Positions 8,102 to 56,740 of a stretch of 64,000 bases of DNA are shown here, piece by piece. The stretch lies in NCBI GenBank assembly GCA_029240075.1, contig JARBTQ010000006.1:2544-66543 (forward strand), read 5' to 3'. Position 1 is the first letter of the stretch. The number at the start of each line of letters is the position of its first letter. Made by a program: the position numbers and the translations under genes. The stretch comes from Chlamydiales bacterium. GTDB taxonomy: Bacteria > Chlamydiota > Chlamydiia > Chlamydiales > JARBTQ01. Under the pieces are notes generated by a model, which ran no database searches, was not told the DNA's origin, and saw only the letters and a list, made by a program, of their open reading frames with translations.

Positions 8102-8118
8102 TTGGCATACGCCTTGCA
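8102..8118 (+). promoter_or_regulatory. Sigma54 (-24/-12) promoter of the flgF operon
   Basis: TTGGCATACGCCTTGCA matches YTGGCACG-N4-TTGCW with exact GG/GC spacing, 37 bp before the flgF ATG. Confidence 0.8.
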
Positions 8119-8155
8119 TATAGACCTAGTAATACAAGCATTAGGAGCGAATCGT

Positions 8156-9004
8156 ATGTTACTAGGTTTTCATGCAGGAGCATCAGGTATTAACTACAAT
8201 GAAGAAAGACAAAAGGTCATTACTCATAATTTATCTAATCAATCGACTGACAGCTTCAAAAAATCCTTGTTAATGTTACAAACCCGTCAGCAGAACCCTG
8301 ATACAAGAGGGGTGGACTCGGCTGTTCGAGCAGGGCTGTCTCCCTTCTATGGCGTGCAACGCAATGGTGTATATAAAAATTTAGCCTCTGTAGGTAGCGT
8401 ACAAACTACAAATAACCCTATGGATGTTGCAATTAATGAAAATACGCCAAATGCCTTCTTTGCTGTTAAGCATTCAGATGGTTCAGATCCTAGAACCTAC
8501 TATACACGTAATGGAAAGCTTTCAATAGGTTTACAAAATCGTTTAGACCCCAACAGTCCCAATGTTCTTTACGTAGCAGGGCATATGGCATTAGACCCTC
8601 AAAATCAGCCTATTCCTATAGATCCAGCTGCAGGCTCCATTGAAATTGGACGAGATGGGCAAGTATTCCAAGCAGGAGCACCTATAGCTGAGCTAGCTGT
8701 TTTTCGTATGAATAAGAGTGCCGATCCCTTGAAGCAAGAAAATGCTAATTTACAGCTTTTAGAAAGCAAAGAAGGGCTCCTATATTCTATTCCAGATTTT
8801 GTTAAGGAAGTTGTTCCATTCAGAATTAATCCTGATGATAACCCAAATATCCTCAGACAAGGCGCTATAGAAGGTTCAAACGTGAATGCACTGCAAGAAA
8901 TGGTTGAGATGATGAACACTACGAGAAGTGCTTCCGCTAACCAGTTGGCTATGTCTACACATGCTGGATTATTAGAGAAGCTATTTCAATACGCTAGAGC
9001 TTAA
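8156..9004 (+). CDS. flgF: Flagellar basal-body rod protein FlgF
   Basis: HNLSNQSTDSFKK, TNNPMDVAI, YTRNGKL, QGAIEGSNVNALQEMVEMM; start moved to ATG 8156 (AGGAG RBS) from ORF-track TTG. Confidence 0.88.
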   Translation: MLLGFHAGASGINYNEERQKVITHNLSNQSTDSFKKSLLMLQTRQQNPDTRGVDSAVRAGLSPFYGVQRNGVYKNLASVGSVQTTNNPMDVAINENTPNAFFAVKHSDGSDPRTYYTRNGKLSIGLQNRLDPNSPNVLYVAGHMALDPQNQPIPIDPAAGSIEIGRDGQVFQAGAPIAELAVFRMNKSADPLKQENANLQLLESKEGLLYSIPDFVKEVVPFRINPDDNPNILRQGAIEGSNVNALQEMVEMMNTTRSASANQLAMSTHAGLLEKLFQYARA

Positions 9005-9048
9005 TTCCAATTCATACACTAAAAAAATAAAATAGATAAGAGGTAAAT

Positions 9049-9840
9049 ATGTCGGAAAGAGCAATGTGGACCGCAGCAAATGGTATGAAAGCAAATATGA
9101 TCAAAATGGATGTTATTGCTAACAACCTCGCTAACGCTGGAGTCAATGGATTTAAGAAGAGTAACCCTGAGTTTCAAGATCTATTATACCAAACTTTAGT
9201 GGCTCCTGGGCAATCTACAGGTGCTGATACAAGAAATCCTGTAGGACAACAGGTCGGTGTAGGAACTAGACTTTCAGCTATTTCTAAGCAATTTACCCAA
9301 GGTGACATGATCGGTACAGGTAATGACTTGAATGTTGCAATTATGGGACAAGGATTATTTGAACTAGAAGGAGCTCAAGGTGAAAAAATCTATACACGTG
9401 ATGGAAATTTCCACCTTTCAGATCAAGGTGAAATCGTAAATGCGGATGGGTATAAATTAGCTAATATTCAAGCAGTCCCTACAAATTATCGCAAGATCAA
9501 TTTCAATAAAGAAGGGTATGTTTCATACATTGATGCTGATTCTGGCCAAGAAACAGATCTAGGGCGCCTACAGCTAGTTACTTTTGCTAATTATTCCGGG
9601 TTAGATGCTCAGGGTGGAAATATTTACAAAGAAAGTCAAGCTTCTGGAGCAGCAACTCCTGTAAATCCAGGAGAACAGGGAGCTGGTACAATTTCGCATC
9701 AATTTTTAGAAGGTTCAAACGTTGTTATCGTGGAAGAAATGGTTAAATTGATGTCTGCAGAACGTTCTTACCAAACAAACTCAAAGGCTATAAGAGCTGG
9801 AGACGAAATGCTGGAAATTGCTAATCAAATTGCTCGCTAA
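9049..9840 (+). CDS. flgG: Flagellar distal rod protein FlgG
   Basis: ANNLANA..GFKK..EFQDLLYQ, QVGVGTR, YTRDGNF, LEGSNV.IVEEMV, NSKAI...DEML. Confidence 0.96.
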   Translation: MSERAMWTAANGMKANMIKMDVIANNLANAGVNGFKKSNPEFQDLLYQTLVAPGQSTGADTRNPVGQQVGVGTRLSAISKQFTQGDMIGTGNDLNVAIMGQGLFELEGAQGEKIYTRDGNFHLSDQGEIVNADGYKLANIQAVPTNYRKINFNKEGYVSYIDADSGQETDLGRLQLVTFANYSGLDAQGGNIYKESQASGAATPVNPGEQGAGTISHQFLEGSNVVIVEEMVKLMSAERSYQTNSKAIRAGDEMLEIANQIAR

Positions 9841-9868
9841 TAGCGTTAGATAAACGGGGGATTCTATC

Positions 9869-10843
9869 ATGCTAAAACATTATGTCTGCTCACTATGGTA
9901 TATGGGTTTTTATTTACTTTTCCTGTGTGGCGCTGTTCAAGGTTTTTGCAGTATTGAGGTAGAGCTTATTGAATCAGTTGCAGTGCGCAGCACTACAATT
10001 ACTCTAGGAGACATTGCTCATATCTCGGCGGATGATTCAAGCTCCCGTCAACGCGTAGCGCAAATTATTATCGATCAATTTCCAAATGTCGATACTAGTC
10101 GAGTGATCTCTTCATTCAAAATTAAAAAGACTTTAGAGCAAGCTGGGTTTCAGGAAGTAAAGCTCACTGGCTTGAATAGTAAAGTTTATGTGGATACACA
10201 AATTGTCCCTGTGATGTCTATTGAAAAAGCTATTGAGGATTGGCTACACAGCTTACTAACTTCTGATGTGGAAGCCGTAATTCAATACGAGAAAATTCCC
10301 CACCAGTGGAAAGTTCCTGCGGGAGAGCAATTTTCCATAGAAGTTACTTCAGCAAAAAATAGAATTGGTGGTGTTGTAAGCTTAACTTTGAAAGCTGTAG
10401 ATGGCAAAAAGATGATTAGTTCAAGCCAAGCTCGAATTAACGTTGCTCTTTATAGACCAGTAGTGACTCTCGCTAGACACATGAAAAAAGGCGATCATTT
10501 GGATGAGAGTAGCTTGATGGTTCAAAGAATGGATGTTACGCAATCAAATGGTATGGAAATTGCTGATTTAAAAGAAGTTTTAGGCAAAGTGCTGAAAAAA
10601 GATTTAGGGGCAGATAGCCTACTTTATAGACAAGATTTAGATCTACCGATTTTGATTGAGAAAGGGTCCTTAAACAGAATAATTGTAGTCAATGGCGATC
10701 TAAAGATGAATATGACAGGAGCTAAAGCTTTGCAGAATGGAAAGAAGGCAGAAACTATAAATTTTACGAATCCAATTAACGAAAAAACAGTTATACAAGC
10801 AAAAGTAATTAGAGCTGGCTTAGCAGTAATGCATATAAATTAA
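9869..10843 (+). CDS. flgA: P-ring assembly chaperone FlgA
   Basis: Signal peptide, ITLGDIA N-domain, SAF-like region, GAKALQNGKK..I...NP C-terminus; between flgG and flgH. Confidence 0.85.
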   Translation: MLKHYVCSLWYMGFYLLFLCGAVQGFCSIEVELIESVAVRSTTITLGDIAHISADDSSSRQRVAQIIIDQFPNVDTSRVISSFKIKKTLEQAGFQEVKLTGLNSKVYVDTQIVPVMSIEKAIEDWLHSLLTSDVEAVIQYEKIPHQWKVPAGEQFSIEVTSAKNRIGGVVSLTLKAVDGKKMISSSQARINVALYRPVVTLARHMKKGDHLDESSLMVQRMDVTQSNGMEIADLKEVLGKVLKKDLGADSLLYRQDLDLPILIEKGSLNRIIVVNGDLKMNMTGAKALQNGKKAETINFTNPINEKTVIQAKVIRAGLAVMHIN

Positions 10844-10847
10844 AGTA

Positions 10848-10918
10848 TAGACCCCTTGCAAAACTCTTTTTACTGGAATTTAATAGACTAATTGGCAAAG
10901 GGTTCTGCAAGCAATCTA
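10848..10918. repeat. ~70-bp palindromic (MITE/RPE-like) element inside the flagellar operon
   Basis: Left end TAGACCCCTTGCAAAACTCTTT; right end reverse complement TAGATTGCTTGCAGAACCCTTT. Confidence 0.6.
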
Positions 10919-10948
10919 ATGCTAAGGATAAATGAGGAGTATAAGACA

Positions 10949-11566
10949 ATGTTTCATAATAAATGGTTATTAGCAGTTATAAGTTCTATGACTTTGATAG
11001 GAGCCCCATTATCTGCGGCCCGCCCTTCTCTTTATAGTATAAAGAATTCTCCATTTGCTGCTGATAATGCTGCTAATGTAGGCGATTTATTGACAATCAT
11101 TGTGGATGAGTTTGCTGATGCTAAAGATGAGGGTGAAAATGATAGTGAGCTCTCTAGCGATGTTCTTAGCAGTACTTTAAACAATTTTTTGCTTTCTTAC
11201 ATACATCTGGATGGAAGACTGGGGAAAGCTATAGGGAATAATAGAGCGGGCTCAGCTGATACTAATAAGATTAAAGGGAAAGCTAAAAATATCAATAAAC
11301 ATGACTTTAAAACGGAACTACAGGCACGAGTAATTGAAGTTGTGGCTCCTGACCAGCTTTTAATCAGAGGAAGTAGATCTTTAAATTTTAATGGAAAGCT
11401 CAAAGATGTTTTTATTACAGGGATTATCCGCAAGCAAGACATCTCTGTTGCTAACTCTATTGAATCTAAGAAATTAGCAGATGCCACAATAGAAATTGAT
11501 GGAGAAGTTGTTTCCAAAGATTTACAACCAGGCTTCTTTAGAAAGTTGTTAAGAAAAGTTTTTTAA
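10949..11566 (+). CDS. flgH: Flagellar L-ring protein FlgH
   Basis: A.NVGDLLTIIVDE, ARVIEV, L.I.G.R, ITGIIR.QDI...NSI.S.KLADA.I, QPGFF C-terminus; start moved to ATG 10949 (GAGGAG RBS). Confidence 0.88.
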   Translation: MFHNKWLLAVISSMTLIGAPLSAARPSLYSIKNSPFAADNAANVGDLLTIIVDEFADAKDEGENDSELSSDVLSSTLNNFLLSYIHLDGRLGKAIGNNRAGSADTNKIKGKAKNINKHDFKTELQARVIEVVAPDQLLIRGSRSLNFNGKLKDVFITGIIRKQDISVANSIESKKLADATIEIDGEVVSKDLQPGFFRKLLRKVF

Positions 11567-11591: not shown

Positions 11592-12824
11592 ATGAAAACG
11601 AAAGCGATGATGTTAGCTTGTTTAAGCTACGCACTTCTAATGTTTAATTCCCTTCAAGCTCAAATCAGCCCTGATTGGAAGATTATTAAAGAAAAAGAAA
11701 ATTTAGATAAAGCATTAGAGCCCTATCGTGCAGGGCCAGCTCCGGGGCGTTCAATCAAAATTGGTGATTTAACCAATGTGGTCGGAGATGAAAAAGTGGT
11801 ATTAACTGGTTTCGGGATAGTTTCTGGTCTCAATGGGACAGGGGATAGTGCTGGTCCAGCTAGAGATATGCTTGTGAAGGTAGCGCAGAGACAAGGAATT
11901 CAATTCAACGCAGCCTCTTTGCAGGGAAAGAATCTTGCTTTAGTGTCTATCTCAGCAGAAGTATCCCCATATCAGAGAACTTTTGACATAGCTGTTAAAT
12001 CAATTGGAGATGCAAAATCATTGCAAAATGGTTTTTTAGAGGCTTCAACGCTTAGTCCTGTAGGTTCTGATGTGGTCTATGCCTTTGCTTCAGGAGCTCT
12101 TTCTTTGGGCGCTCGTTATTTTGCTGCTACACCTGGAAATGGAGCAGGAGCTACAGCAGGAGGAGCAACATCTGTTACAATTGGACACCCTACGGCTGCA
12201 TTCGTAATTGATGGAGGAGAAGTTGTTAAGGAGATTCCTACTGCTCGTCTAGAAGATAATAAGCTAACCTTATTTATTAAACATCCTAACGAAAGAACAT
12301 CAATTAATATATCTGATTCAATCAATCGTTACATGGGCAAGATGGGTATCGAGGCGGAAGCTACAAGTGCTTCTACAGTCACTATTTATGTGCCAAAGTA
12401 TTACCAAAATAACCAAGGTAGATTAACTCAGTTAATTGCAGACATCAATGATATGCCCGCGACAGTTTCCCGTAGAGCTATTATAACTATCGACCAAGGT
12501 TCTGGTGTCATTGCTATGACCGAAGGGGTAAAGATGGAGCCAGGTTCTATCACAATTGCAGGTATTACAGTTTCTGTATCTTCTGATGTTCAAGCTGTTA
12601 ATAAAGGTGGAATCTTAGGAGGAAACGACTTTGTAGAGCAGCCTTCTCTTGAAGTTGATGAAAAGAAAGCTAATTTTCTTTCAATACCTGCTGGTACTGA
12701 TCTCAGAATGGTTCAGGAAACATTGAATGCCATGAAACTAACGCCTACAAGTATGATTTCAGTCTTTAACGCTATGCATAAAGCAGGAATGATTCATGCT
12801 GATTTAATTATCTTGCCGAAATAA
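11592..12824 (+). CDS. flgI: Flagellar P-ring protein FlgI
   Basis: LTGFGIVSGLNGTGDS, KNLALV, SIGDAKSLQNG.L, AMHKAGMIHADL. Confidence 0.93.
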   Translation: MKTKAMMLACLSYALLMFNSLQAQISPDWKIIKEKENLDKALEPYRAGPAPGRSIKIGDLTNVVGDEKVVLTGFGIVSGLNGTGDSAGPARDMLVKVAQRQGIQFNAASLQGKNLALVSISAEVSPYQRTFDIAVKSIGDAKSLQNGFLEASTLSPVGSDVVYAFASGALSLGARYFAATPGNGAGATAGGATSVTIGHPTAAFVIDGGEVVKEIPTARLEDNKLTLFIKHPNERTSINISDSINRYMGKMGIEAEATSASTVTIYVPKYYQNNQGRLTQLIADINDMPATVSRRAIITIDQGSGVIAMTEGVKMEPGSITIAGITVSVSSDVQAVNKGGILGGNDFVEQPSLEVDEKKANFLSIPAGTDLRMVQETLNAMKLTPTSMISVFNAMHKAGMIHADLIILPK

Positions 12825-12847: not shown

Positions 12848-13186
12848 ATGAGTGTTATAAATAGTTCTATACCGAATACAAAAGCAAATTACAATATTGG
12901 GAACACCAACTTTCGCAATAACCATGTTAGCAAAGATCCAAAGCAAGTGGGAGCCGATTTTGAATCATTTGTATTCTACAGACCTATGTTTAAAATGATG
13001 AGAGAGGATCAATTCGCGACAAAAGAAGATCCTTTCTTTAATAGTGATGAGATGAAAAACATACAAGAAATGCGCGATGAGGTTATTGCCGATTACTTAG
13101 GAGCTCAAGGTAAACTAGGAATGATCAAGCTTTTAGAAGAGTCAGCATATATTTCAGAGCAGAAAAATACAGCTGAAGCTGTATGA
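12848..13186 (+). CDS. flgJ: Rod-capping FlgJ (rod-binding domain only)
   Basis: DFESFVF..MFKMMR...F.S...QEMRDE.IA....GKLG pattern; directly after flgI; 112 aa. Confidence 0.75.
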   Translation: MSVINSSIPNTKANYNIGNTNFRNNHVSKDPKQVGADFESFVFYRPMFKMMREDQFATKEDPFFNSDEMKNIQEMRDEVIADYLGAQGKLGMIKLLEESAYISEQKNTAEAV

Positions 13187-13232: not shown

Positions 13233-13811
13233 ATGGAAATAGATAAAGATCGCTACATAGATCCAGAAAAGGAGCAGAGTGACATTGTAAAGAGCGCTCA
13301 AAAACGATTACAAGAATTGATGCAGCGTGAGATAGCAGTTATGAGAGAAATGCTATCTAGTATGCAAAGAGAACAAGATAGCTTATTGCTAAATAATGTC
13401 AATGTATTGCAGATGATAATGAAGGATAGAGAAGCTATTTTTGAAACTTTAATGAGCATTAGAAATGAAAGAATAGAAGAAGTGAAGCTTGTCGCAACTT
13501 TACTCTACAAAGCAAAAGGATACCCGCCCAATAATGATGGTCAGGAGAAAAAATTAGAAGACTTATTAGATCCTACGAGCTCTGAGACCTGTGAAATCTT
13601 TTTACTAAGAGACCAACTACTGGCTTTATTAGAGAAAATCAATGAGCAAAATAGCCGCAATAACCGTCTTATTCAGAATCGGATCAGGAATACGAAAGAA
13701 TTAATGCGACGCTTGTATCCGAATGAATTAGGCCCAGTCTATCAAGGAGACGGGAAATATGCGCAAAAAACAAAAATTACCACAATGACTTTGATCAATC
13801 ATGAGGGATAG
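13233..13811 (+). CDS. flgN: Flagellar export chaperone FlgN
   Basis: Helical protein with N..N..LI and late Y..xG motifs, immediately before flgK. Confidence 0.7.
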   Translation: MEIDKDRYIDPEKEQSDIVKSAQKRLQELMQREIAVMREMLSSMQREQDSLLLNNVNVLQMIMKDREAIFETLMSIRNERIEEVKLVATLLYKAKGYPPNNDGQEKKLEDLLDPTSSETCEIFLLRDQLLALLEKINEQNSRNNRLIQNRIRNTKELMRRLYPNELGPVYQGDGKYAQKTKITTMTLINHEG

Positions 13812-13814
13812 CTT

Positions 13815-16139
13815 ATGTGCAGTATGAATGTTAGTAAAGATGCGATGTTAGTTTATCGTAAAGGGTTAGATGTTTTTGCGCGTAATATTTCACAGGCTGG
13901 AAATAAAAATTATTCCCGTCAAGAAGTAACTCTGGCTACAGCGGGTAGTATACAGATTGGGGGATTTCATTATGGTCAGGGAGTGGAAATTGCTAGCATA
14001 CAACGCATTCGTAATGAAATGCTTGATAAGCAAGTTCGTTCTGTTAACGCAGATCACAGTGGGAATACTTTAAAAGCTCAATGGTTAGATCGTCTGTTAA
14101 ATATACATAACAATTCTGAAGGTGTTGGATTAAATCATCATCTTGCTATGTTTTGGAATAGCTGGACAACATTGTCTTCTTCAACAGCTTCCAATGAAAC
14201 GGCATGTAGGCAAGAAGTTATTAATTCAGCTAAAGCTCTAGTTCATTCTGTCAGAACATTGGATGCGGAGCTTGACGCGCATGGAGATGTAGCTAATAGC
14301 GATTTATCAACAAAAGTTGAGAGGTTCAATCATGTTACTAAGGAAATTTCCCATTTAAATGAGCTTATTCTTTCTGCTGAAGTAGGAGCTGAATCCAAAG
14401 CAAATGATCTCAGAGATCGAAGAGATGGCTTATTAGATGAATTATCGAACTTAATGGAAATTTCTACAAAAGAAGATAGTTCGGGGAATTTTACAGTATT
14501 TGTTGGAAATCATGCAGTCGTTATGGGGCCTAATTCTGAAAAACTTGTAGAAAGAGATCCAAGCTCTAGTAGTCCCTATAGTCATTTCAAATTAGCATGG
14601 GAGTTTGGAGATTCTTTTACGCCCCCATTTACAGGGGAAATTCCTGCATTACTTGATGTTCGAGATACAATGATTGCTGAACAGCATGAAAACCTTAATA
14701 CTTTTACAAAAGACTTTATTGACGCTGTCAATACTATCTACTCTAATGGTATTGGAGCCGAGGGTGAAACCGTCATGCGTAGTCGTTTAGGAGTCTCTGC
14801 CTTAGGTGTTTCAGATTCTATGACTCCTTTAAATTTAGTGCCTAATGGCGAAACAGGGCATATTGAATTTGGATTTTACGACAGTCAACAAAACTTAGTT
14901 CGCACGGCTGGTATAGTAGTTCATTCTACAGACACCTTAGCGCAAATTATGGCTAAATTAAACAATATTAAAGGTTTAAACGCTTCTGTTATTTCAGATC
15001 CAGATGATAATTACAAACTGGAATTTTCAATAAATAGTGCTGAATGTAGTTTAGGCGAAGTTCAATTTGGCATCGTAAATAATGCTAGTGGAAGCTTTGA
15101 TGAAAATGGCATTTTCAAAGCAGATGGTAAATTTGACAATACTACTGGTCGGTCAGATCAAAAAGGGATTTTACAGCTTTTTGGATTTCCTGGTTACAAT
15201 GATAGTATAAGCTTTCATAAGTCTACGAATATAAGTTCAGTCCTCCCTATCTTAGCTAGTCAAGACATTACTAATCTATATAATGATTTAGACGTAGTAA
15301 GCGTAGCAGCTGCTAGAACTAAAAAGCTGGGTTTAAGTGGTTATTTTACAGTGGATACATTTGAAACCGCTACTAGTACAGTTTCTAATGCGGGGCATCA
15401 TGCTCAGCAATTTCGTATAGATGTTGTTCCTACTGATTGTATGGATGACATCATGAATAAAATTAATAACTTAACGACAGACTATGGCGTAAGCATGTCG
15501 TTCAACTCCTTAACAAATCAATACGAGTTGACTAGTTTAACAGTAACAGATGCTTATGGTGAAATTCTAGACGTTACGGGATCTACAACTCCTGACGGAT
15601 CAACGGCTTACGCTGTGCAGCTTTCTTTTGGTAATTTTTACCATGAAAGTATAACAGCAACTGATCGACCTCCTTTAGGCTATAATGGTCTAGGCGATAA
15701 TACAAGGTTGTTTGCTCTAATGCAAATGAATACTCTCTTTAGTGGAAGAGATGCCAATGATATCGATATGGATGATACTATCACTTCCGTTTGGCAAATT
15801 CATAAAGGATACAGTACTCATCCTGGTGATAACGGTATGGCTTTAGATATGTTCCGGCTTAAAGATCAAAAAATTGCTGCAAACAATTCTACCACTTTAG
15901 ATCAAAGCTATAGAGATCTTATTGCTAAACTTGCCCAAGAAGCTAAAGAAGCTGAAACGTATGTTGTAGATTCCGATGTTAAACTAAAAGGTATCATAGA
16001 TAAAAGACAAGGAATCTCAGGTGTTAGCTTGGATGAAGAATTAGCAGCAATGATGCAATACCAGCAATACTACGCTTTTAATGCGAGAATTTTTGAAATG
16101 ATGAATGAAATTGATAAAATGACTTTACAACTAGGCTAA
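13815..16139 (+). CDS. flgK: Hook-associated protein 1 FlgK (long form)
   Basis: NISQAG...YSRQ, GQGVEI..I.R, ANDLRDRRD.LLDELS, ISGVSLDEE...MMQYQQ.Y. Confidence 0.93.
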   Translation: MCSMNVSKDAMLVYRKGLDVFARNISQAGNKNYSRQEVTLATAGSIQIGGFHYGQGVEIASIQRIRNEMLDKQVRSVNADHSGNTLKAQWLDRLLNIHNNSEGVGLNHHLAMFWNSWTTLSSSTASNETACRQEVINSAKALVHSVRTLDAELDAHGDVANSDLSTKVERFNHVTKEISHLNELILSAEVGAESKANDLRDRRDGLLDELSNLMEISTKEDSSGNFTVFVGNHAVVMGPNSEKLVERDPSSSSPYSHFKLAWEFGDSFTPPFTGEIPALLDVRDTMIAEQHENLNTFTKDFIDAVNTIYSNGIGAEGETVMRSRLGVSALGVSDSMTPLNLVPNGETGHIEFGFYDSQQNLVRTAGIVVHSTDTLAQIMAKLNNIKGLNASVISDPDDNYKLEFSINSAECSLGEVQFGIVNNASGSFDENGIFKADGKFDNTTGRSDQKGILQLFGFPGYNDSISFHKSTNISSVLPILASQDITNLYNDLDVVSVAAARTKKLGLSGYFTVDTFETATSTVSNAGHHAQQFRIDVVPTDCMDDIMNKINNLTTDYGVSMSFNSLTNQYELTSLTVTDAYGEILDVTGSTTPDGSTAYAVQLSFGNFYHESITATDRPPLGYNGLGDNTRLFALMQMNTLFSGRDANDIDMDDTITSVWQIHKGYSTHPGDNGMALDMFRLKDQKIAANNSTTLDQSYRDLIAKLAQEAKEAETYVVDSDVKLKGIIDKRQGISGVSLDEELAAMMQYQQYYAFNARIFEMMNEIDKMTLQLG

Positions 16140-16166: not shown

Positions 16167-17117
16167 ATGTCTGAATCAGAAAAAGTTTCCAATGTTCAAA
16201 CGTTTGATCGTATGGTTTCCAGTATTAGGGAGCAAACAGCAAAGACTAGCCGTCTTGTAGAGCAGACGACTAGTGAACAGCGCCTTTTAAGTCCTGCAGA
16301 TGATCCTGTTAGTTACAGTCAATCAATGCACTACCAAGCTAAAATTGCGCATAACAAAGAATTTGAAAAAACATATAAAGCAGCTAATACATGGATTACA
16401 GCTACTTCTAATTATTTGGATCAAGTAATAGGGGGAGTTTATCTGCGTGCAGGTGAAATCGCAACAGATGCAAATGATGGTTCTAAAAATAGTCATGACA
16501 GACAAAACATGGCTGATGAAGTGGATGCATTATTAAATTCACTATTACAGCTGACAAATGGACAACTAGCTGGTAATTATCTTTTTTCAGGCTCTAAGAC
16601 AGAAACTCCCCCTTTTAGGGCGGAACGCAACGCAGATCAGCAGATTATAGCTGTTTACTATGAAGGGGATTCTTTTGTTCAAAAATATCGGATGAGTAAC
16701 GATGGAATGAGCCAAATAAACTTGATAGGTGGTAATTCTGGTAACGATAAAGCATTTGGATGCTTTATTGATACGAACTCTGGTGTAAATGTATTTAGTA
16801 CTCTTATCAAACTTCGAGATCGCATTAATGACAATATTATGGATAACTCAGCAGGTGATATGATTACCGAAATTCAATCTGTTACAGATCATTTAATTAC
16901 TGCTCAGACTCGCTTGGGGGGATTTCAAAAGATTGCTCAATTAGATTTTGAAAGGGTTGAAGAGCAAGGTAGCTATATGGAAAAGGCCTTAAAAGACTTG
17001 GTTGATATGGACCCTATACAATCTTTAATAGAAATGAATAATTTGCAAGTATTGTACCAGGCTTCTTTAGCAATGGCTACCCGTATAAGTCAGACGACTT
17101 TGCTAAACTATATGTAG
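16167..17117 (+). CDS. flgL: Hook-associated protein 3 FlgL
   Basis: SPADDPV, GNYLFSGSKTETPPF, YQASL....RI.Q.TLLNY. Confidence 0.92.
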   Translation: MSESEKVSNVQTFDRMVSSIREQTAKTSRLVEQTTSEQRLLSPADDPVSYSQSMHYQAKIAHNKEFEKTYKAANTWITATSNYLDQVIGGVYLRAGEIATDANDGSKNSHDRQNMADEVDALLNSLLQLTNGQLAGNYLFSGSKTETPPFRAERNADQQIIAVYYEGDSFVQKYRMSNDGMSQINLIGGNSGNDKAFGCFIDTNSGVNVFSTLIKLRDRINDNIMDNSAGDMITEIQSVTDHLITAQTRLGGFQKIAQLDFERVEEQGSYMEKALKDLVDMDPIQSLIEMNNLQVLYQASLAMATRISQTTLLNYM

Positions 17118-17377: not shown

Positions 17378-17827
17378 ATGCAACCATTAGAGAATGATTT
17401 TTTTGATACAAATGAAGGATGTAAGAATATCCAGCAAATCCTTTTTCCAGAGGGGCTACCAGGTTTAGAAAACGTAAAAGAATTTTTACTTATTGCGGAA
17501 GAGGAGGAAACTCCTTTTGTCTGGTTGCAAGCTGCCCACAATCCTGAAACTTCATTTTTAACAGTAGATCCTTTTATCATTCATCCAAGTTATTTACCTG
17601 ATATCTCTGAAGAGGATTTGCAGGCTGTAAATATCGGAGACTTAAGTGATGTCTTTCTCACTTGTATTGTGAATATGAGGAATAACCATGAGCAGGGAGT
17701 TACGGTTAATTTAGTAAGTCCCATTTTAATTAATTGGAAGAGTAAAGTGGGGAAACAAGTTATTTTACAAAACTACCAAGATTATTCTGTAAGATATCGT
17801 ATAGATCAAGCTCCAAAAAGTGCATAA
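17378..17827 (+). CDS. fliW: Flagellar assembly factor FliW
   Basis: FPEGLPGLE, PFVWLQ, F..VDPF...P.Y, TVNL.SPILIN....GKQVIL..Y. Confidence 0.93.
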   Translation: MQPLENDFFDTNEGCKNIQQILFPEGLPGLENVKEFLLIAEEEETPFVWLQAAHNPETSFLTVDPFIIHPSYLPDISEEDLQAVNIGDLSDVFLTCIVNMRNNHEQGVTVNLVSPILINWKSKVGKQVILQNYQDYSVRYRIDQAPKSA

Positions 17828-30551: not shown

Positions 30552-32180
30552 ATGAGCTTGGAGTTTTTAAGAGAATTTGGTCAGCAGCTTCTGAGTATCT
30601 GGAAGGAGATTAAAACTTATCAAAAGTTTACTGTCATTATGGTCGCTTCCTTGCTAGTAGCTATGCTAGTTCTTCTTGTAGCTAATGCTGCTGCTACGCG
30701 TTATACCCCTCTTTTTCCCGTTGATAGATTGACAATTACGGATGCGGCTGAGATTAAAGGTTATCTTGATGGACTGCGTGTTCCTTATAAAATTCAAAGT
30801 GATACATCGATCATAGTGCCCGAAAATCAAGTGCACCGCTTAAGGATGGACTTGGCAGCAGTGGGGCTACCTAAATTGCATTCAGGTAAAGGGTTCGAAC
30901 TTTTTGATACAAATACTTGGATCAAAGGGGAAAAAGAGCTACAAGTTTTAGAAATGAGAGCTCTTAAAGGTCAATTAGAAAGGGATATTGCCGAATATGA
31001 AAATATTAAAACGGCCAATGTCATTTTGGACATCGCTCCTCCTCGTCCTTTTGGTGGCTCAATGTATAAAACTAAGGCTTCTGTCATTTTAAATTTAATG
31101 CCAGGTGCAAGGCTCAGTTCTTCCCAGCTAAGAGCTATTACTTATCATGTAGCCGGAGCTGTAAGAGGATTAGTTCCTAATATGGTTGCTATTTCTGACA
31201 CTACCGGTAAGCTTTATCAAGCTATTGATCCAGAAGGAGATACAGACATGTTGCGTAGCGCTGAAGCTGGATTGGAGGAAAGGATCAAGTCTAAGGTTGA
31301 TGGTATGCTAGCGATGGTCGTAGGAGCAGATAACTTCTACTCAACTGTGCAAGTAACCATGAGTCGTAAGAAAGTTAGTGAAGAACGTAAAATTTACTCT
31401 GGTGTAGTAAATGGGGTAAATTTGGGAGATGCTGTTCCCATGTCTCTTACAGAATCTGGAATGCAAATGACTGAAAAAGAAAGGTCTGAGCAAGGAGCTC
31501 CTGGTTCTAATAATGAAGCTGTTGCTGGAGCTGTTATTGGAGGATCAACTGATCTGCTCAATCGCTCGGAAAACAGAAACCAACAGTATCGACAAATGGC
31601 CGTTCCTGTAGATCATGTTAAAATGCAATCTCAGCCTGGTGTTATCGAAGCTATATCGATTGGTGTACTGATAGATAAAACAATTACAGTTGGAAATGAT
31701 TCCGATTTGCCAGTTACAGATGTTATTGATGGAAAACGTCAAACAGAAAGAATTAAGCAAGAAATCTTAAATCAACTTTCAAAAATTATCGAAGGGCACG
31801 GTGTAAAAGCTATTCCAGCTGTAGACTTTGTCGAGTTTGACAAGACGTCTTCCAATAAGAGAGCTTCGGAAGAGAGCTGGGGAAGTATCATAGATCGAGC
31901 TACTCAAGTAGGTACAGGCGCATTTATTGTAATAACAGTTATGGCCATGTTATGGACATTCAACAGTTTTTGGCGCAAGCATATGATGCAACCTCCTGTT
32001 TTAGATAAAGAGGAAGAAGAGATCTCAGCTACGTATACAGAAGAGCCTTCAATTATAGAAGTGGAAGCAATGATCGAACTAATCAAGACAAGATTGCAAA
32101 GTGATCCTACTTTAGTTATCGATTCCTTAAAGGAATGGCTTGTTGAAAGTAATGAATTTAGCATCGGTAATACTAAGTAA
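30552..32180 (+). CDS. fliF: Flagellar MS-ring protein FliF
   Basis: Two TMs, VP..QV..LRM.LAA.GLP, GFELFD, RAL.GQL.R.I, ASVILNL, VAGAV.GL. Confidence 0.93.
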   Translation: MSLEFLREFGQQLLSIWKEIKTYQKFTVIMVASLLVAMLVLLVANAAATRYTPLFPVDRLTITDAAEIKGYLDGLRVPYKIQSDTSIIVPENQVHRLRMDLAAVGLPKLHSGKGFELFDTNTWIKGEKELQVLEMRALKGQLERDIAEYENIKTANVILDIAPPRPFGGSMYKTKASVILNLMPGARLSSSQLRAITYHVAGAVRGLVPNMVAISDTTGKLYQAIDPEGDTDMLRSAEAGLEERIKSKVDGMLAMVVGADNFYSTVQVTMSRKKVSEERKIYSGVVNGVNLGDAVPMSLTESGMQMTEKERSEQGAPGSNNEAVAGAVIGGSTDLLNRSENRNQQYRQMAVPVDHVKMQSQPGVIEAISIGVLIDKTITVGNDSDLPVTDVIDGKRQTERIKQEILNQLSKIIEGHGVKAIPAVDFVEFDKTSSNKRASEESWGSIIDRATQVGTGAFIVITVMAMLWTFNSFWRKHMMQPPVLDKEEEEISATYTEEPSIIEVEAMIELIKTRLQSDPTLVIDSLKEWLVESNEFSIGNTK

Positions 32181-33290: not shown

Positions 33291-34044
33291 AGGTATTAAA
33301 AAAATCATAAGAGGCGCTGATGTCGAGGGAATAACATTCTGCACTCCTACCGGAGAGCTTGAACAGGAACAACAGAAACAGCGCCAAGAGCAAGAGCACT
33401 TAAAGACTTTAGAAGAATTTTGGCTGGATAAGGGGTTTCAACAAGGAATCGAAAGAGGTTTTGAGGAGGGTTGGTCCAAAGGGGAAGAAGAGGGTTACCT
33501 CAGAGGGCTGACTGAAGGAAAAAAAATAGGGGAAGAGGAAAGTAAGGAAAAATATATTGAAGAAGGTCGTGTTCAAGGATACGATAAAACTATACAAGAA
33601 TTGGAAGAGCTTTTTTCCCTATTTAAAAATTTAAACCACAAGCTAGAGAGGGAAAGGTTTGAACTTACAGATAAACTTCGCCCAGATCTTATAAACCTAG
33701 CAACCTCTATTTGCGAAAAAGTTCTGAAAAGAGATTTAGCACAGGAGTCTAGTATGGTACAGTTAATAGACTCTTTATTATTGCAGCATCAAAGACTTAT
33801 CAAAGAAGCACCTTTAACAATTGTACTGCCATCAGAGGAAGCTACAACTATTCGAAATTGGCTGGAAAAACAGCATTATGATTCAAATTCTCAATTAATG
33901 GATAAAGTTCAATTTCAGCCTGATGAACGTATGATTAAGGGAAATTGTCGTATAGAATTTCCTATGGGTATTATTCACTTTGATATAGAACGGCAACTTG
34001 CAGAAATAAAAGAAAAGACTCTAGCAGCAGAGGATTTAGAATAA
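33274..34044 (+). CDS. fliH: Flagellar export protein FliH
   Basis: Tandem GxxxG repeats, C-terminal G.CRIE...G; start set at ATG 33274 (GGAGG RBS). Confidence 0.88.
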   Translation: MTLLSKGIKKIIRGADVEGITFCTPTGELEQEQQKQRQEQEHLKTLEEFWLDKGFQQGIERGFEEGWSKGEEEGYLRGLTEGKKIGEEESKEKYIEEGRVQGYDKTIQELEELFSLFKNLNHKLERERFELTDKLRPDLINLATSICEKVLKRDLAQESSMVQLIDSLLLQHQRLIKEAPLTIVLPSEEATTIRNWLEKQHYDSNSQLMDKVQFQPDERMIKGNCRIEFPMGIIHFDIERQLAEIKEKTLAAEDLE

Positions 34045-34056: not shown

Positions 34057-35364
34057 GTGACATTGAGTTTAGCACGTGAGATATCGCAAGTAAAAAGATG
34101 GGAAGGAATTAGAATTAGTGGAAGAATCACTCATATTGTAGGATTGTTGATAGAATCGATAGGTCCCAAAGCTTGCTTAGGTGAAATTTGCTATGCTTAT
34201 GGAAAAAATGGACAAGCTATACCTTGTGAAGTCGTTGGTTTTAAGGACAAAAATGTTCTTTTAATGTGTTTAGGAGAAATGACTGCTTTAACCACTGGAT
34301 CTGAAGTTTATCCAACAGGGCACGTGCACAGAGTTGCTGTTTCTAATGCTATGTGTGGTAGAGTCTTAGATGCATTAGGTCGTCCTATAGATGATAAAGG
34401 CCCCCTTATCCCCGAAAAATATTATCCGGTTATTGCAGCTCCACCAGAGCCACTACGCCGCCGTAGGATTCATGATATTTTAAGTACAGGAGTAAAATCG
34501 ATAGATGCAACTTGTACTGCTGGACAAGGGCAAAGATTTGGCATTTTTTCTGGTTCAGGTGTTGGTAAATCAACCCTTATGTCAATGATGGCTCGTATGT
34601 CCTCTGCAGATATTAACGTTATTGCTCTTGTTGGGGAACGGGGAAGAGAGGTTCGGGAGTTTATAGAAAGAGATCTAGGTCCTGAGGGATTAGCAAGATC
34701 AGTAGTAGTGGTAGCTACTTCTGACCAAGCGGCATTACTGCGCTCAAAGGGAGCTTGCGTAGCTACTGCTATCGCTGAATATTTTAGAGACATGGGGAAA
34801 AATGTTCTTCTTATTATGGATTCTGTTACGCGTTATGCTATGGCTTTACGTGAAATAGGTTTAGCTATTGGAGAACCTCCTGCTACCAAAGGGTACACTC
34901 CCTCTGTTTTTGCTGCTCTACCAAAATTATTGGAAAGAGCCGGTAACTCTGATAAGGGATCAATTACGGGCATTTACACTATTTTAGCAGAAGGGGATGA
35001 TCTTAATGATCCCATCGTTGATACGGTTCGTTCTATATTGGATGGGCACATTGTATTATCTCGTAAACTTGCATCTGCTAATCACTTTCCTCCTGTTGAT
35101 GTTTTAGAAAGTTTATCAAGGGTGATGTCCGATATCACAACATCGACTCATTATGAAAAAGCAGGTAAGTTAAGAGATCTATTACAGGTGTACAAAGAAG
35201 CAGAGGACTTGATCAATATTGGGGCTTATGTATCAGGATCTAACCCTAAAATAGATCAAGCAATTAGTTTAATAGGATCTATTAGAAGCTTTTTAAAACA
35301 AAAATCTCATGAGCAGTTTACGTTTGTTCAGACAGAAAAACTTTTAAGCACCCTTATCAAATAA
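34057..35364 (+). CDS. fliI: Flagellar export ATPase FliI
   Basis: Walker A GSGVGKST, GERGREVREF, Walker B LLIMDSVTR, ILDGHIVLSR. Confidence 0.96.
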   Translation: MTLSLAREISQVKRWEGIRISGRITHIVGLLIESIGPKACLGEICYAYGKNGQAIPCEVVGFKDKNVLLMCLGEMTALTTGSEVYPTGHVHRVAVSNAMCGRVLDALGRPIDDKGPLIPEKYYPVIAAPPEPLRRRRIHDILSTGVKSIDATCTAGQGQRFGIFSGSGVGKSTLMSMMARMSSADINVIALVGERGREVREFIERDLGPEGLARSVVVVATSDQAALLRSKGACVATAIAEYFRDMGKNVLLIMDSVTRYAMALREIGLAIGEPPATKGYTPSVFAALPKLLERAGNSDKGSITGIYTILAEGDDLNDPIVDTVRSILDGHIVLSRKLASANHFPPVDVLESLSRVMSDITTSTHYEKAGKLRDLLQVYKEAEDLINIGAYVSGSNPKIDQAISLIGSIRSFLKQKSHEQFTFVQTEKLLSTLIK

Positions 35365-35372: not shown

Positions 35373-35837
35373 ATGAAAGGGCAATTCAAATTTAGAATGG
35401 AAGCTGTGTTGACCCTTCGTACGCAGCAAGAGCAGATTGTACAAAAAGAATTATCTGCTTTACAAAAAGAACTGGATGAGGCATTTAATGTTTTAAAAAG
35501 TTTAGATAAGGAAAGATTAAGCGTAGAGCAAGAATTAACGGATACTCAAAGAAAAAGTCATGTAGCTACTCGTTTAGTAGAACATTTGCAATATCTAGAT
35601 TTACTTAAAAAGAAAATAGCATATTCGCAGGACGATGTCATTAAACTGCAGAATAAAATAGCCAGTAAAAGGCAAAAATTATTCGAAGCAAAGAAAAATA
35701 AAGAAGTTCTCGAAAAGTTAAAAGAAAAGCACTATTCTGATTGGAAAAATCATATCGATAAGATTGAATCTCAATTTTTAGATGAACTCGCAACTATTCG
35801 CTTTCACAGACAGGACTCAGGTTTGAAATATGATTAA
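35373..35837 (+). CDS. fliJ: Flagellar export protein FliJ
   Basis: FKFRME.VL.LR start, coiled coil, LEKLKEK, E...LDE.A end. Confidence 0.88.
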   Translation: MKGQFKFRMEAVLTLRTQQEQIVQKELSALQKELDEAFNVLKSLDKERLSVEQELTDTQRKSHVATRLVEHLQYLDLLKKKIAYSQDDVIKLQNKIASKRQKLFEAKKNKEVLEKLKEKHYSDWKNHIDKIESQFLDELATIRFHRQDSGLKYD

Positions 35838-36537
35838 ACAAATTAGCATTCTTATTTCTATTTTTATAATAATTTTAGCCGCTATAATTGGCGCTGGAAT
35901 GTATTTTAAGCAACAGCAGGCTATAGAGTCCGTATCAGCAAGCTCTAATCCGGCAACAACAGATAGCAGTGGTAAGGGAAAGAAAAATAGCGGAATATCT
36001 GATAGCGAAGTAGAGCTATCTCAAGGCGATCAGTCAAAGATGGATGAGCTGACAAGACAGGCAATAGCAGAGATAAGAGCTGAACAGCGGCTTAATTTAA
36101 CTATGACTGCTCAATTAAGAACTTATCGTACAATGTTGAACCAGTTGCAAAGTTATGCCAAAAAAGTTGAAAATGATATAGACATGGCTAGAGAAATCTC
36201 TAAAAATGACTTTCAAGAAAATGTAGAGCTTCAGGCTGGGTTATTTACTGGTAAAAAACCAGAATTAGTAGCAAGGCATTTAGAAGAGTTTGAACCGATA
36301 CGTATAGGTGCTATCTTAGCTAAAATGAAAGAAAAAGAAGCTGCACAAGTTCTTGATGTTTGGGCTATAGCAACTCCTATACAAAAAGGTGAGAGTTTTT
36401 ATAGAGATGTTATGGGTGCTTATCTGGCAAACCGTAGGCACGATATACATCCTGAGTTATTTTCAACCATTAATACAGAAAGTATCAATCAACCGACTCA
36501 GAATCCGGTTGAACCAGAGCAACCAGTTAGACCTTAA
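35830..36537 (+). CDS. YlxF/FlbB/MotE-like flagellar protein
   Basis: N-terminal TM, coiled coil, ILAKMKEKEAAQVL MgtE_N-like motif; directly after fliJ. Confidence 0.65.
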   Translation: MIKQISILISIFIIILAAIIGAGMYFKQQQAIESVSASSNPATTDSSGKGKKNSGISDSEVELSQGDQSKMDELTRQAIAEIRAEQRLNLTMTAQLRTYRTMLNQLQSYAKKVENDIDMAREISKNDFQENVELQAGLFTGKKPELVARHLEEFEPIRIGAILAKMKEKEAAQVLDVWAIATPIQKGESFYRDVMGAYLANRRHDIHPELFSTINTESINQPTQNPVEPEQPVRP

Positions 36538-54135: not shown

Positions 54136-54169
54136 TAGACCTCTTGCAAAACCTTTTTGCAATGGTCTA
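54136..54169. repeat. Collapsed palindromic element (same termini as 7961 and 10848)
   Basis: TAGACCTCTTGCAAAA-CCT-TTTTGCAATGGTCTA. Confidence 0.6.
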
Positions 54170-54383
54170 TTAAAATGGCCAATAAACAGTCCATAGGAAA
54201 GATCTAATCCATTCATCATCAGGTTATAAATTTGTAATAGATCAAAAAATAAAATTATTCCCTTTTATTTTTCTAATATGCTAGAGAGTTGTACAAGAGC
54301 TGGTATCAAAGAAATTCTCTCATTTTGCAAGATATAAAATAAAGTTGTGTATCATCGCAAATATAAAAATGTAGCTGCTTTAT

Positions 54384-54410
54384 TAGAAGATAAGCAATAT
54401 CTACCAATAA
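54384..54410 (+). promoter_or_regulatory. Weak sigma28-like promoter candidate for flagellin
   Basis: TAGA-N15-ACCAATAA versus TAAA-N15-GCCGATAA, in an AT-rich context. Confidence 0.25.
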
Positions 54411-54522
54411 AATATAAGAGTTTTCTTTGATAAATTTTCTTAAAAAAATTTCAATAGGCTATACCACTTATTGGAATTACAGCGAAAAGATTATCAAATA
54501 GTAAACATATGGAACTAGGCCT

Positions 54523-56166
54523 ATGAATATCCCTCCTGTAGCTTTGTCCCTTACCTCCCATTATCAGAAAAGCAAAAATAAATTGGCAGCTTCCATGCGA
54601 GTACTTTCTTCGGGAAATCGCCTAATAAACGTGGGAACCGATCCTGCAGGTTTGCGAATGTCTGAAAAATTACGTAGCGATATCCGGTCAAATATGGCTA
54701 ATAAGTTAAATTTAGAAGCAAATTTAGCTTATTTGAGCGTTGCTGATTCCCATATTCAAAAAGTTTATGAAGTCTTAGATAGGATGACTGAACTTACTGC
54801 TCAAGTAATGGATACAACTAAAACACCGGGTGATATAGCTGCGTTTGAAGCTGAATTTCAGGCCTATAAAGATGAGTTGTCGCGTGCGTCTAGAGAAGGT
54901 TCGTTCTACGGGCGTCAAGTAGCAAGCCGAGAAGCTTTAGTCTCTTACGATGCAAATAGTGAAACAATGAGATATTGGGGAACAAACGACATTGGAGGAG
55001 CCTTAGAGATAGAGCGTAAGTTTGGAGCTTCTGGAACAGATGCCTTTGGAACTGCTATCAATTTTGATCCTAATGAAAATTTTGGTATGAGTCGCGACGG
55101 ACGCAGCCTATTCTATCTGGATTCCAATCAGCATCTATGTAGTTACGATATGCTTAATAACAAAGTAACTAGAGGTACTGATACCTACAACTCTGGAGAT
55201 ACAATGGTAGTAGACGAGACAGGGGCTCTATATGTAAATGGAAATGGAACTCTTTACACCATAGATACAGGCTCGTTAACAAGAACTTCTACAACATTGA
55301 CAACATTGGCTGCAGGGAAGGAATTCACCGTCTATAATAACAGTGCTATTTATTGGGATGCTGCAACGACTAATATGGTCACAACAGATTTAAGTATTTT
55401 AAGTACAACGACTCTTGTGGATAGCTCTATCGGCTCCAATTTGGCAAATTTAAATAGCGTATTTGGCTCTTCAACACACGCGATTTCTGGCTCAGGCCGT
55501 TATATAGTAGGTAAGCTAAGCGCAACTAGTATAGGTCTGGTAGACTGTAAAACTGGGGCTTATTCAACTGCTAGCTTAGGAGCAAGCTGCAATTTATCAG
55601 AGCTACAAATTAGTGAGGATGGCGATCTTGTCTACTATGTAGATACGCAAAATTCTTCAGTTAATACCATTGCTATCCAAAGTGGTACTATGGCAACAGG
55701 GCAAACCGTGATGCAAGGGGTAAATGCTAATTCATTTTTAGGATTGGATGTTGGGGGCGCTGGATTTCAATCTTTACAACAATTTTATTTAGGGGGCGAT
55801 AGTAAATCTACAATTTATTATGAGTCACCAATTCTTAATTTGTATAGTTTAGGGTTAGCCAACACATCAATAGATAACCCTACAAATGCGGGGTTAACTT
55901 TACAAGATCTACAGCGCGCGACAAACCGAGTAGCATCACAACATACGGAACTGGGAGCTATCATGTCACGCTTAGAGCGCATTTTAAATGCTACAGAGAC
56001 AGTGACAGCTAATATGCAAGATAAGGAAGGGTTGATACGCAATGCTGATGTTGCAAAAGAAGCTACTGAATACAGCCAACAAGAAATTTTAAATCAATAC
56101 ACAACATCTTTATTAGCTCAATATAATGCTAGCGCATCAAGTGTCTTGAAGTTGTTATCATACTAA
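54523..56166 (+). CDS. fliC: Flagellin with beta-propeller-like central domain
   Basis: N-terminal LSSGNRL...DPAGL.MSEKLRS.I...LDRMTEL..Q; C-terminal LGAIMSRLE, IRNADVAKE..EY....IL.Q....LLAQ.N.....VLKLL. Confidence 0.88.
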   Translation: MNIPPVALSLTSHYQKSKNKLAASMRVLSSGNRLINVGTDPAGLRMSEKLRSDIRSNMANKLNLEANLAYLSVADSHIQKVYEVLDRMTELTAQVMDTTKTPGDIAAFEAEFQAYKDELSRASREGSFYGRQVASREALVSYDANSETMRYWGTNDIGGALEIERKFGASGTDAFGTAINFDPNENFGMSRDGRSLFYLDSNQHLCSYDMLNNKVTRGTDTYNSGDTMVVDETGALYVNGNGTLYTIDTGSLTRTSTTLTTLAAGKEFTVYNNSAIYWDAATTNMVTTDLSILSTTTLVDSSIGSNLANLNSVFGSSTHAISGSGRYIVGKLSATSIGLVDCKTGAYSTASLGASCNLSELQISEDGDLVYYVDTQNSSVNTIAIQSGTMATGQTVMQGVNANSFLGLDVGGAGFQSLQQFYLGGDSKSTIYYESPILNLYSLGLANTSIDNPTNAGLTLQDLQRATNRVASQHTELGAIMSRLERILNATETVTANMQDKEGLIRNADVAKEATEYSQQEILNQYTTSLLAQYNASASSVLKLLSY

Positions 56167-56188
56167 ATAATTAGAGGTATTAGAAACT

Positions 56189-56740
56189 ATGTTGAACTAT
56201 GCATTTTCTCACGATTCTTATAAAAGTTATAAAGAAACTCAAGAGCACTTACAAGTTAATTTAAAGAAATTAGAGGCTGTTAGCCTTCCTTCAGAATTTG
56301 GCTTAAGCGAAATTTTTCATAAACATTTCAATGCTCATGATACCATGGCTTTAGCATGTGAAAAGGCTATGGAACAGTTAGCTGAGGTTTATGTGCAGAA
56401 ATTAGTTGAATTAGAGCATGCTGTTAGTGCAACAGAGGCTTTATCTTTACTCAATGATGCTGAAAGTATTTGGGAAGAATCGGCCAGTGTTATACGTAAA
56501 TATGATTCTGAAGGAACAGAGAAAGCCTTTCTGCTTGAGATGAGACAACAAGCTCTAGTCTTCTTAGAAGATCAATTGGCCCAGGCTGGCAAACGTTGTG
56601 AAAGAATTCCTTCTAAGGAAAATGTTACCCTTTGCTTAGGATTGTTAGCAGTTATAGATTACATACTTGAAGAGTGTGGAGAACCTAGCAATAGTCCTAA
56701 GAGAAAACGTTACAGAGAAACAGCATTGAAATTTCGCTAA
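56189..56740 (+). CDS. Hypothetical helical protein probably co-transcribed with flagellin
   Basis: 183-aa ORF 22 bp after the flagellin stop, AGAGG RBS. Confidence 0.7.
   Translation: MLNYAFSHDSYKSYKETQEHLQVNLKKLEAVSLPSEFGLSEIFHKHFNAHDTMALACEKAMEQLAEVYVQKLVELEHAVSATEALSLLNDAESIWEESASVIRKYDSEGTEKAFLLEMRQQALVFLEDQLAQAGKRCERIPSKENVTLCLGLLAVIDYILEECGEPSNSPKRKRYRETALKFR

Follow-up and report, generated by a model that had tools for sequence, protein, structure and literature searches.

Chlamydiae are described in textbooks as non-motile bacteria with an obligate intracellular life. A set of flagellar genes in a chlamydial genome therefore raises the questions of whether the set is complete, where it came from and whether it would let the cell swim. 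Here, we address these questions for a 64-kb stretch of DNA (the window) that is part of a 100.6-kb contig (C28) in the draft genome (2.43 Mb, ~36% GC) of an uncultured environmental member of the Chlamydiota, with an estimated completeness of 97.8% and contamination of 0.42%. We consider it likely that this bacterium encodes a full flagellum that is ancient, maintained by selection and rotary, and that the flagellum probably serves an extracellular stage in reaching hosts. All flagellar genes listed below are present and intact, and have the genome's own composition. As in the original prediction, which was made on the window alone, we infer a host-dependent bacterium with a swimming dispersal stage.

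The window contains three flagellar loci, which extend from flgF to fliW (8102-17827), from fliF to fliJ (30552-35837) and over a flagellin gene (54523-56166). Pfam scans recovered each of the predicted genes as an uninterrupted open reading frame (ORF) with a near full-length domain match, so that the prediction of intact genes in three loci was borne out for all of them except FlgJ, for which the match to its family is sub-threshold (Table 1). The predicted interleaving with chlamydial core genes is likewise apparent, as a TLC nucleotide transporter, a FabI-type reductase and a UDPGP enzyme were located by Pfam, and the predicted lack of an integrase agrees with our scans: no integrase or transposase family was detected at the scanned loci of the window, which contain 53 of its 54 ORFs with a length of 100 amino acids (aa) or more (overlapping ORFs counted together with their locus; one locus unscanned). 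The start of flgF is most likely ATG 8156 rather than TTG 8102, because a sigma-54 −24/−12 element fills 8103-8118 and an AGGAG box precedes the ATG. The fliH gene likely starts at ATG 33274, and the true start of flgH is probably an internal Met, 19 codons in. Inspection of key residues by eye identified the MFVF motif and a charged C-terminal helix in FliG and the P-loop GSGVGKST in FliI.

A profile search of the contigs recovered the missing parts elsewhere in the genome, all of them intact and without a stop codon inside any family match. The axial parts (FliE, FlgB, FlgC, FlgF, FlgG, FlgD, FlgE, FliK, FlgK, FlgL, flagellin, FliD) are complete, as are the MS and C rings with the ATPase complex (FliF, FliG, FliM, FliN, FliH, FliI, FliJ). 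The outer-membrane bushing is of the diderm type and comprises FlgH and FlgI with FlgA, which have signal-like N-termini. FlgB and FlgC score 22.4 and 19.8 bits against Flg_bbr_C, just under the cut-off of 23, and are encoded in the order flgB-flgC-fliE. The stator is represented by MotA (PF01618) and by MotB (PF13677 and OmpA), which has an Asp in its transmembrane helix (FSDMVTLL); this channel aspartate has a role in the stator. Also encoded are the chaperones FlgN and FliS, FliW with CsrA, FliL, the placement GTPase FlhF and the sigma-28 factor FliA. Altogether, the flagellar loci lie on at least nine contigs and adjoin chlamydial core genes.

The flagellum has its own export gate, distinct from that of a type III secretion system of the non-flagellar kind (NF-T3SS) encoded separately (sctJ, sctL, sctR, sctS and sctT on C39; sctU and sctV on C22). 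Two FHIPEP and two FliP loci are present, and FlhA, FlhB, FliP, FliQ and FliR with FliO form the flagellar gate. FlhA is 67-70% identical to its orthologues, versus 36-39% to SctV paralogues. The chemosensory set includes nine matches to the domain of methyl-accepting chemotaxis proteins (MCPs), five CheW-domain matches, among them two hybrids of CheA with a receiver (REC) domain, CheR and CheB. One che operon (C12:24097-31865) encodes CheW, a 197-aa ORF, CheB, CheR, CheA-REC and a REC-adenylate/guanylate cyclase protein; two MCP genes come next. Taken together, these genes would build a rotary flagellum driven by protons or ions, probably at an extracellular stage, with which the cell could reach hosts.

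The flagellar genes do not stand out from the genome that carries them. GC content at third codon positions (GC3) is 0.287 in 26 flagellar genes and 0.283 ± 0.029 in 1136 long ORFs, and relative synonymous codon usage of the flagellar genes correlates with that of the genome at 0.989, within the null range (mean 0.990, minimum 0.975). GC along the window is even (0.33-0.40). Among 1.84 billion cluster representatives, FlgI had one full-length relative (71% identity) and a few fragments (49-65%), and everything else was at or below 35%. Named records contained eight close FlgI relatives (53-61% identity; next best 29-31%), seven titled Chlamydiales, Waddliaceae or Simkania and one 'uncultured bacterium'. 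In the FlgI tree the chlamydial sequences form one clade with a Shimodaira-Hasegawa-like approximate likelihood-ratio (SH-aLRT) support of 99 and a stem of 1.04 substitutions per site. Orthologues occur in eight other genomes of the same order, with identities to the window genome of 54-59% for FlgI, 55-61% for FliG, 63-67% for FliF and 67-70% for FlhA; the nearest relatives are ~58% identical in protein, a distance at which synonymous sites have presumably reached saturation. Gene order is also shared, as flgF-G-A-H-(I) is kept in all six other genomes fetched and fliF and fliG are adjacent in all eight other flagellate genomes. Over 21 genome pairs, which are not independent, five concatenated flagellar proteins have a mean identity of 59.9% versus 58.0% for Rho and PolA (r = 0.60). 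Because these divergences match those of Rho and PolA, the flagellar genes appear to be as old as the split between families and about as conserved as housekeeping genes. The sequences thus place the flagellar proteins in a chlamydia-specific clade that diverged between families about like housekeeping proteins, and in our interpretation the system is of old origin, was inherited vertically and was lost repeatedly. The set would descend from an ancient chlamydial flagellum that was lost in most lineages, and selection would keep it here.

Flagellates are rare in the phylum. Of the 401 genomes sampled, 10 have FliM (9 of the 335 that are of high quality), each from a different family and two as weak matches, and FlgI was detected in eight of 41 family representatives. 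The flagellate relative G103 has two full FliM genes (G103:C14:14563-15135 and G103:C20:20241-20813), one of them 6.5 kb from a sigma-54 activator (G103:C20:27227-27724). The window genome, which falls in one order with all 400 others, including a 25-species genus of 1.0-1.2 Mb genomes, is the sole representative of its family and genus among the genomes drawn. On a FastTree phylogeny of Rho and PolA (40 family representatives, seven flagellates present), flagellates are clustered, requiring four changes versus a mean of 6.6 in shuffles, of which three of 500 were as low. The window genome is sister to the non-flagellate representative G048, which has no FlgI match, with a support of 97. Second FlhA-like matches occur in the non-flagellates G002 (C100:1165-3057; 50-56% identity to flagellar FlhA) and G303 (C1:900478-902551; split pieces), and in the likewise non-flagellate G003 of a small-genome genus (divergent, 37% identity over residues 25-311). 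In the non-flagellate G334, the second FHIPEP match is an SctV-like copy with two stops (C43:17531-19621). The second matches in G002, G303 and G334 look like remnants at differing stages of decay.

Could the flagellar genes have arrived recently from a non-chlamydial, for instance proteobacterial, donor? Their rarity in the phylum and the lack of a FlgI match in the closest Rho-PolA relative would fit such an event. However, FlgI has no non-chlamydial relative above 35% identity among the cluster representatives, the chlamydial FlgI clade is strongly supported, and codon usage and GC3 equal those of the genome. The genes are also scattered on at least nine contigs among core genes, no integrase family was found, and the proteins diverged between chlamydial families like Rho and PolA; we regard recent acquisition as very improbable and already close to refuted. 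Equally small is the probability that flagellar contigs of another organism in the metagenome were assembled or binned into this genome. The draft comprises 63 contigs and some flagellar contigs are short (C1, 10.2 kb; C36, 18.9 kb), yet estimated contamination is low, composition is uniform and orthologous sets occur in eight other genomes of the order. Moreover, three flagellar loci share the 100.6-kb contig with a TLC transporter, rpoN and a polA-rho pair arranged as in other chlamydiae. On C36, fliOPQR is accompanied by a second TLC transporter, and on C5, flgBC-fliE is accompanied by a UPF0242 protein and ribosomal protein S4. The patchy distribution might instead have arisen because the system passed as a whole from one chlamydial lineage to another, rather than by one ancient origin and many losses. 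The five-protein flagellar tree of nine genomes is star-like, with four of six inner branches unresolved, and does not recover the species-tree pair G001+G144; because of this shape, transfer between chlamydial lineages retains some probability. Approximately unbiased (AU) tests rejected the group G001+G144+G235 without G403, the firm sister of G235 (p-AU 0.006), but not the group with G403 included (p-AU 0.19), G001+G144 (p 0.40) or G103+G288+G348 (p 0.13). No genome pair has a flagellar identity far above that of its housekeeping proteins (largest excess 5 points, 21 pairs), and repeated transfer of the whole system would be unlikely because the genes are dispersed over many loci. A published gene-tree-aware reconstruction infers a flagellated, motile chlamydial ancestor (Dharamshi et al. 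2023, PMC9816063). We therefore consider whole-system transfer improbable, though not to the degree of the two preceding explanations, and maintain that the flagellum is probably an old chlamydial trait. The chimeric or non-chlamydial contig and the nesting among proteobacterial sequences that the original prediction had named as refutations both lack support, given the polA-rho adjacency, the core-gene neighbours, the composition and the chlamydial titles of close FlgI relatives, and the motAB and export-gate genes, whose absence or decay it had named as well, are all present and intact.

It is also conceivable that the genes are ancestral and intact while the machine serves not swimming but secretion, adhesion or host contact, as proposed for the remnants in Chlamydiaceae. 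Cultured chlamydiae are all non-motile, and Chlamydiaceae FlhA is thought to have been kept for non-flagellar secretion (PMC5604735). Besides the draft state of the assembly and the star-like tree, several further observations weigh against the reading that we prefer. FlhB (C32:65422-66531) reads NPVH at the autocleavage site, where the motif is usually NPTH. FliM is without a clear LSQxEIDxLL N-terminus, the motif that binds CheY, and these two unusual sites would suit a use other than swimming. The 112-residue FlgJ matches the Rod-binding family PF10135 weakly (E 0.0026, 18.7 bits; cut-off 25.1), and Pfam revealed no further domain in it, a hydrolase included. FlgM was not found in the genome with the Pfam model PF04316, and no sigma-28 promoter (consensus TAAA-N15-GCCGATAA) was found at 54072-54522 upstream of the flagellin gene. 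The outgroup of the FlgI tree is a small and biased sample of seven sequences (Sericytochromatia, Polyangiaceae, Planctomycetaceae) that were chosen by the peptide patterns they share. The last protein of one che operon is the REC-cyclase, and the output of this C12 pathway may be a cyclic nucleotide instead of a signal to the flagellar switch. Because chemosensing systems occur in chlamydiae generally (PMC8242063), some of the che genes may have tasks other than serving the flagellum. Our literature searches found no report of flagella or motility observed in any chlamydia. Against a non-swimming device stands the observation that every part needed only for rotation and propulsion is intact and has been kept in the different families: MotA and MotB with the channel Asp, FliL, the C-terminal domain of FliG, P and L rings, flagellin, FliD, FliS, FliW with CsrA, and che genes with sigma-54 promoters like those of the rod genes. 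We consider the alternative use about as improbable as transfer among chlamydiae, and a flagellum for swimming remains our preferred interpretation.

A strict scan for the sigma-54 motif TGGCA[CT]-N5-TTGC[AT] returned 16 genomic matches versus a mean of 4.9 (range 3-7) in ten order-2 Markov simulations. Of these matches, five are located directly upstream of flgF, flgB, the flgD-flgE-fliK operon, a cheW-cheA operon and an MCP-cheW pair. All six other flagellate genomes fetched have TGGCA[CT]-N5-..GC[AT] at ~35-55 bases upstream of the ATG of flgF; the element thus precedes flgF in seven of seven chlamydial genomes examined, which belong to different families, and the intergenic sequence around it is not conserved. 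The genome encodes two NtrC-type activators (REC, sigma-54 AAA, HTH_8), one after a PAS histidine kinase on C27 and the other an orphan on C36, 7 kb from fliOPQR. A ParA/MinD-like ATPase gene (C27:40694-41689) directly follows the kinase-activator pair. Two REC-AAA-HTH_8 activators are present in six of eight FlgI-positive versus one of 33 FlgI-negative family representatives, counts in which kin are not independent; 19 of the FlgI-negative representatives have one and 13 have none. This distribution of motifs and activators suggests a class of rod, hook and che genes whose expression depends on sigma-54 together with an activator linked to the flagellum. Promoters of the sigma-54 −24/−12 type precede the rod/ring, rod/FliE and hook operons as well as two che operons, and an NtrC-type response-regulator activator probably fires them.

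No sigma-54 element was found upstream of fliF in eight of nine genomes, and the ninth, G398, has only two weak candidates, one at −203 (9 of 11 positions matched) and one at −54 (8 of 11). A shared motif, GTTTTGATTTCT, occurs upstream of fliF in at least five of the nine flagellate genomes (window ~30410-30440, a degenerate copy; loci L166, L168, L170, L171 and L172), with TATACA-like bases ~15 bases later, and may be a promoter for the housekeeping sigma factor or a regulator site. The genome has three strict sigma-28 matches, all away from the flagellin gene, and FliA itself is present. Between 7000 and 19000, generic searches for sigma-70 promoters and for terminators yielded site numbers that did not exceed those in shuffled sequence. 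An ~80-base repeat, palindromic at its head (AATAGACC...GGTCTATT) and conserved at its tail, lies upstream of both flgF and the flagellin gene. We rejected it as a flagellar operator, as it is an intergenic element dispersed genome-wide, with copies at ~7959-8040, 10846-10930 and 54134-54215 (+) and 24401 (−) in the window and on many other contigs; its 16-base seed has 170 genomic places at up to three mismatches, some of which are surely chance.

Sigma-54 flagellar hierarchies are known from Campylobacter and Helicobacter and from Vibrio and Pseudomonas (FlgS/FlgR, FlrBC, FleQ). The genome resembles them in its −24/−12 promoters on rod and hook operons, NtrC-type REC-AAA-HTH activators, FlhF and FliA, but differs in that we found no sigma-28 promoter for the flagellin gene and no sigma-54 element for fliF in eight of nine genomes. 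In Chlamydia trachomatis, sigma-54 has been tied to late, infectious-form genes (PMC7482065). It is intriguing to propose, though we think it rather unlikely, that flagellum assembly is wired into the sigma-54 of these late genes and fired by the second, flagellum-linked NtrC-type activator. The flagellum would then form as cells convert to the extracellular stage, which would yield motile, chemotactic elementary bodies, in soil too. In the literature searched, supplements aside, neither sigma-54 promoters nor an extra activator had been described for flagellate chlamydiae, and neither RpoN nor FliA occurs in the main text of PMC5604735.

The locus does not open the question of motile chlamydiae, because the point has been in print since 2017: as the original prediction noted, flagellar sets were already reported from uncultured marine chlamydiae. 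Collingro et al. (2017, ISME J; PMC5604735) described three single-cell genomes of marine chlamydiae with genes for a flagellum and chemotaxis, and a distinct chlamydial flagellar clade that they read as an ancient trait lost elsewhere. Metagenomes from freshwater, soil and bioreactors likewise contained FlhA of the chlamydial type. Flagellar genes were subsequently reported from a marine-sediment clade (Dharamshi 2019 preprint, 10.1101/577767) and, with wider occurrence, from chlamydial genomes of the GEM catalogue (Köstlbacher et al. 2021, PMC8242063). Like the set of Collingro et al., the one described here is a chlamydia-specific apparatus beside an NF-T3SS and chemotaxis genes, and our FlgI, FliF, FliG and FlhA data fit their picture. 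Their marine genomes were partial, with 5 to 28 flagellar genes each and the full set drawn from two, whereas here every part is in one 97.8%-complete genome and the runs are labelled soil. The remnants in Chlamydiaceae (FlhA, FliI, FliF, FliH, sigma-28) are homologous to proteins encoded here; Chlamydiaceae lack rod, rings, hook, filament and stator, in contrast to this genome, which has all structural and motor parts.

Hallmarks of the Chlamydiota in the genome include two TLC transporters, the NF-T3SS, UPF0242 and the polA-rho arrangement. The last is found in 37 of 39 other family representatives that have both genes, the remaining two having them on different contigs, and is a convenient synteny marker for chlamydial contigs. 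PolA, Rho, ComEC, TolQ/TolR and rRNA and tRNA modification enzymes are encoded among the flagellar loci of the window, as is a large adhesin-like protein divergent from the flagellin gene. Eukaryote-like domains occur in three proteins, one of them just downstream of the flagellin locus. The 235-aa ORF after fliJ has no Pfam family; its nearest Atlas clusters by features (0.93) are mostly from Planctomycetota and without a common Pfam family, and its structural TM scores to a 'MotE family' cluster are 0.54/0.63. The 183-aa ORF after the flagellin gene matched no Pfam family and gave no usable Atlas lead (best score 0.83). All metagenome runs containing the flagellin gene are labelled soil metagenome. 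In one, the whole gene lies in a 63-kb contig identical to the window, and this run may be the source; a second run, from another study, contains low-depth fragments that each differ at 1-3 letters. No RNA run with the gene appeared in the run search, which says nothing on expression.

Table 1. Flagellar genes and other features of the window (coordinates without prefix) and of other contigs (prefix C)
Feature	Location	Strand	Evidence or remark
FabI-type reductase	2148-3065		Pfam
TLC nucleotide transporter	5561-7075		Pfam
sigma-54 −24/−12 element TGGCAT-N5-TTGCA, upstream of flgF	8103..8118	+	strict motif scan
flgF, proximal rod	8156..9004 (maximal ORF from 8102)	+	PF06429, PF22692
flgG, distal rod	9049..9840	+	PF00460, PF22692, PF06429
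flgA, P-ring assembly chaperone	9869..10843	+	PF13144; N-terminal hydrophobic signal-like segment
flgH, L ring	10892..11566	+	PF02107, E 3e-30
flgI, P ring	11592..12824	+	PF02119, E 2e-62, full length; signal-like N-terminus
small FlgJ-like rod-binding protein, tentative	12848..13186	+	112 aa; PF10135 sub-threshold
flgN, chaperone of FlgK/FlgL	13233..13811	+	PF05130
flgK, hook-filament junction 1	13815..16139	+	774 aa; PF22638, PF06429
flgL, hook-filament junction 2	16167..17117	+	316 aa; Flagellin_N, Flagellin_C; directly 3' of flgK
fliW, flagellin-binding partner of CsrA	17378..17827	+	PF02623, E 2e-34
tRNA-Asn	22889-22962		only tRNA in the window
polA-rho pair	24397-29114	−	adjacent
fliF, MS ring	30552..32180	+	PF01514, PF08345
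fliG, rotor/switch	32226..33290	+	all three domains PF14842, PF14841, PF01706; MFVF motif
fliH, ATPase regulator	33274..34044 (maximal ORF from 33238)	+	PF02108
fliI, export ATPase	34057..35364	+	PF00006, PF18269; P-loop GSGVGKST
fliJ	35373..35837	+	PF02050
membrane-anchored coiled-coil protein, MotE/YlxF-like, lead only	35830..36537	+	235 aa; Atlas and structural comparison
UDPGP enzyme	36549-37940		Pfam
adhesin-like protein	45963-54071	−	2702 aa; DUF4347, FG-GAP, LVIVD, several Laminin_G/Concanavalin-like domains
flagellin, fliC-type	54523..56166	+	547 aa; Flagellin_N, Flagellin_C
ORF directly 3' of flagellin gene	56189..56740	+	183 aa
F-box protein	56868-57713	−	eukaryote-like domain
rpoN (sigma-54), factor that would read the promoter at 8103-8118	58068..59573	+	PF00309, PF04963, PF04552
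motA, motB, fliL, fliM, fliN	C1
flgB, flgC, fliE	C5		adjoin ribosomal protein S4 and UPF0242 protein
csrA	C18:10942-11097
fliD	C21
flhB, flhA, flhF, 107-aa ORF, fliA	C32
fliS	C35
fliO, fliP, fliQ, fliR	C36		adjoin second TLC transporter
976-aa protein	C36:12229-15159		weak F-box match
ankyrin-repeat protein	C39:67428-68702		after sctT
short FliK-like gene, flgD, flgE, fliK	C51		FlgE 931 aa

This genome is a new and unusually complete example of a phenomenon already established in the literature. Its value lies in being near-complete, with all of its flagellar genes readable, in coming from a family of which no other member was sampled, and in its link to soil-labelled runs. The conserved sigma-54 promoters and the extra activator provide a regulatory lead and are possibly a new detail. 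A full flagellum together with chemosensing would imply an actively host-seeking extracellular stage in this bacterium, and supports a motile ancestor of the chlamydiae.

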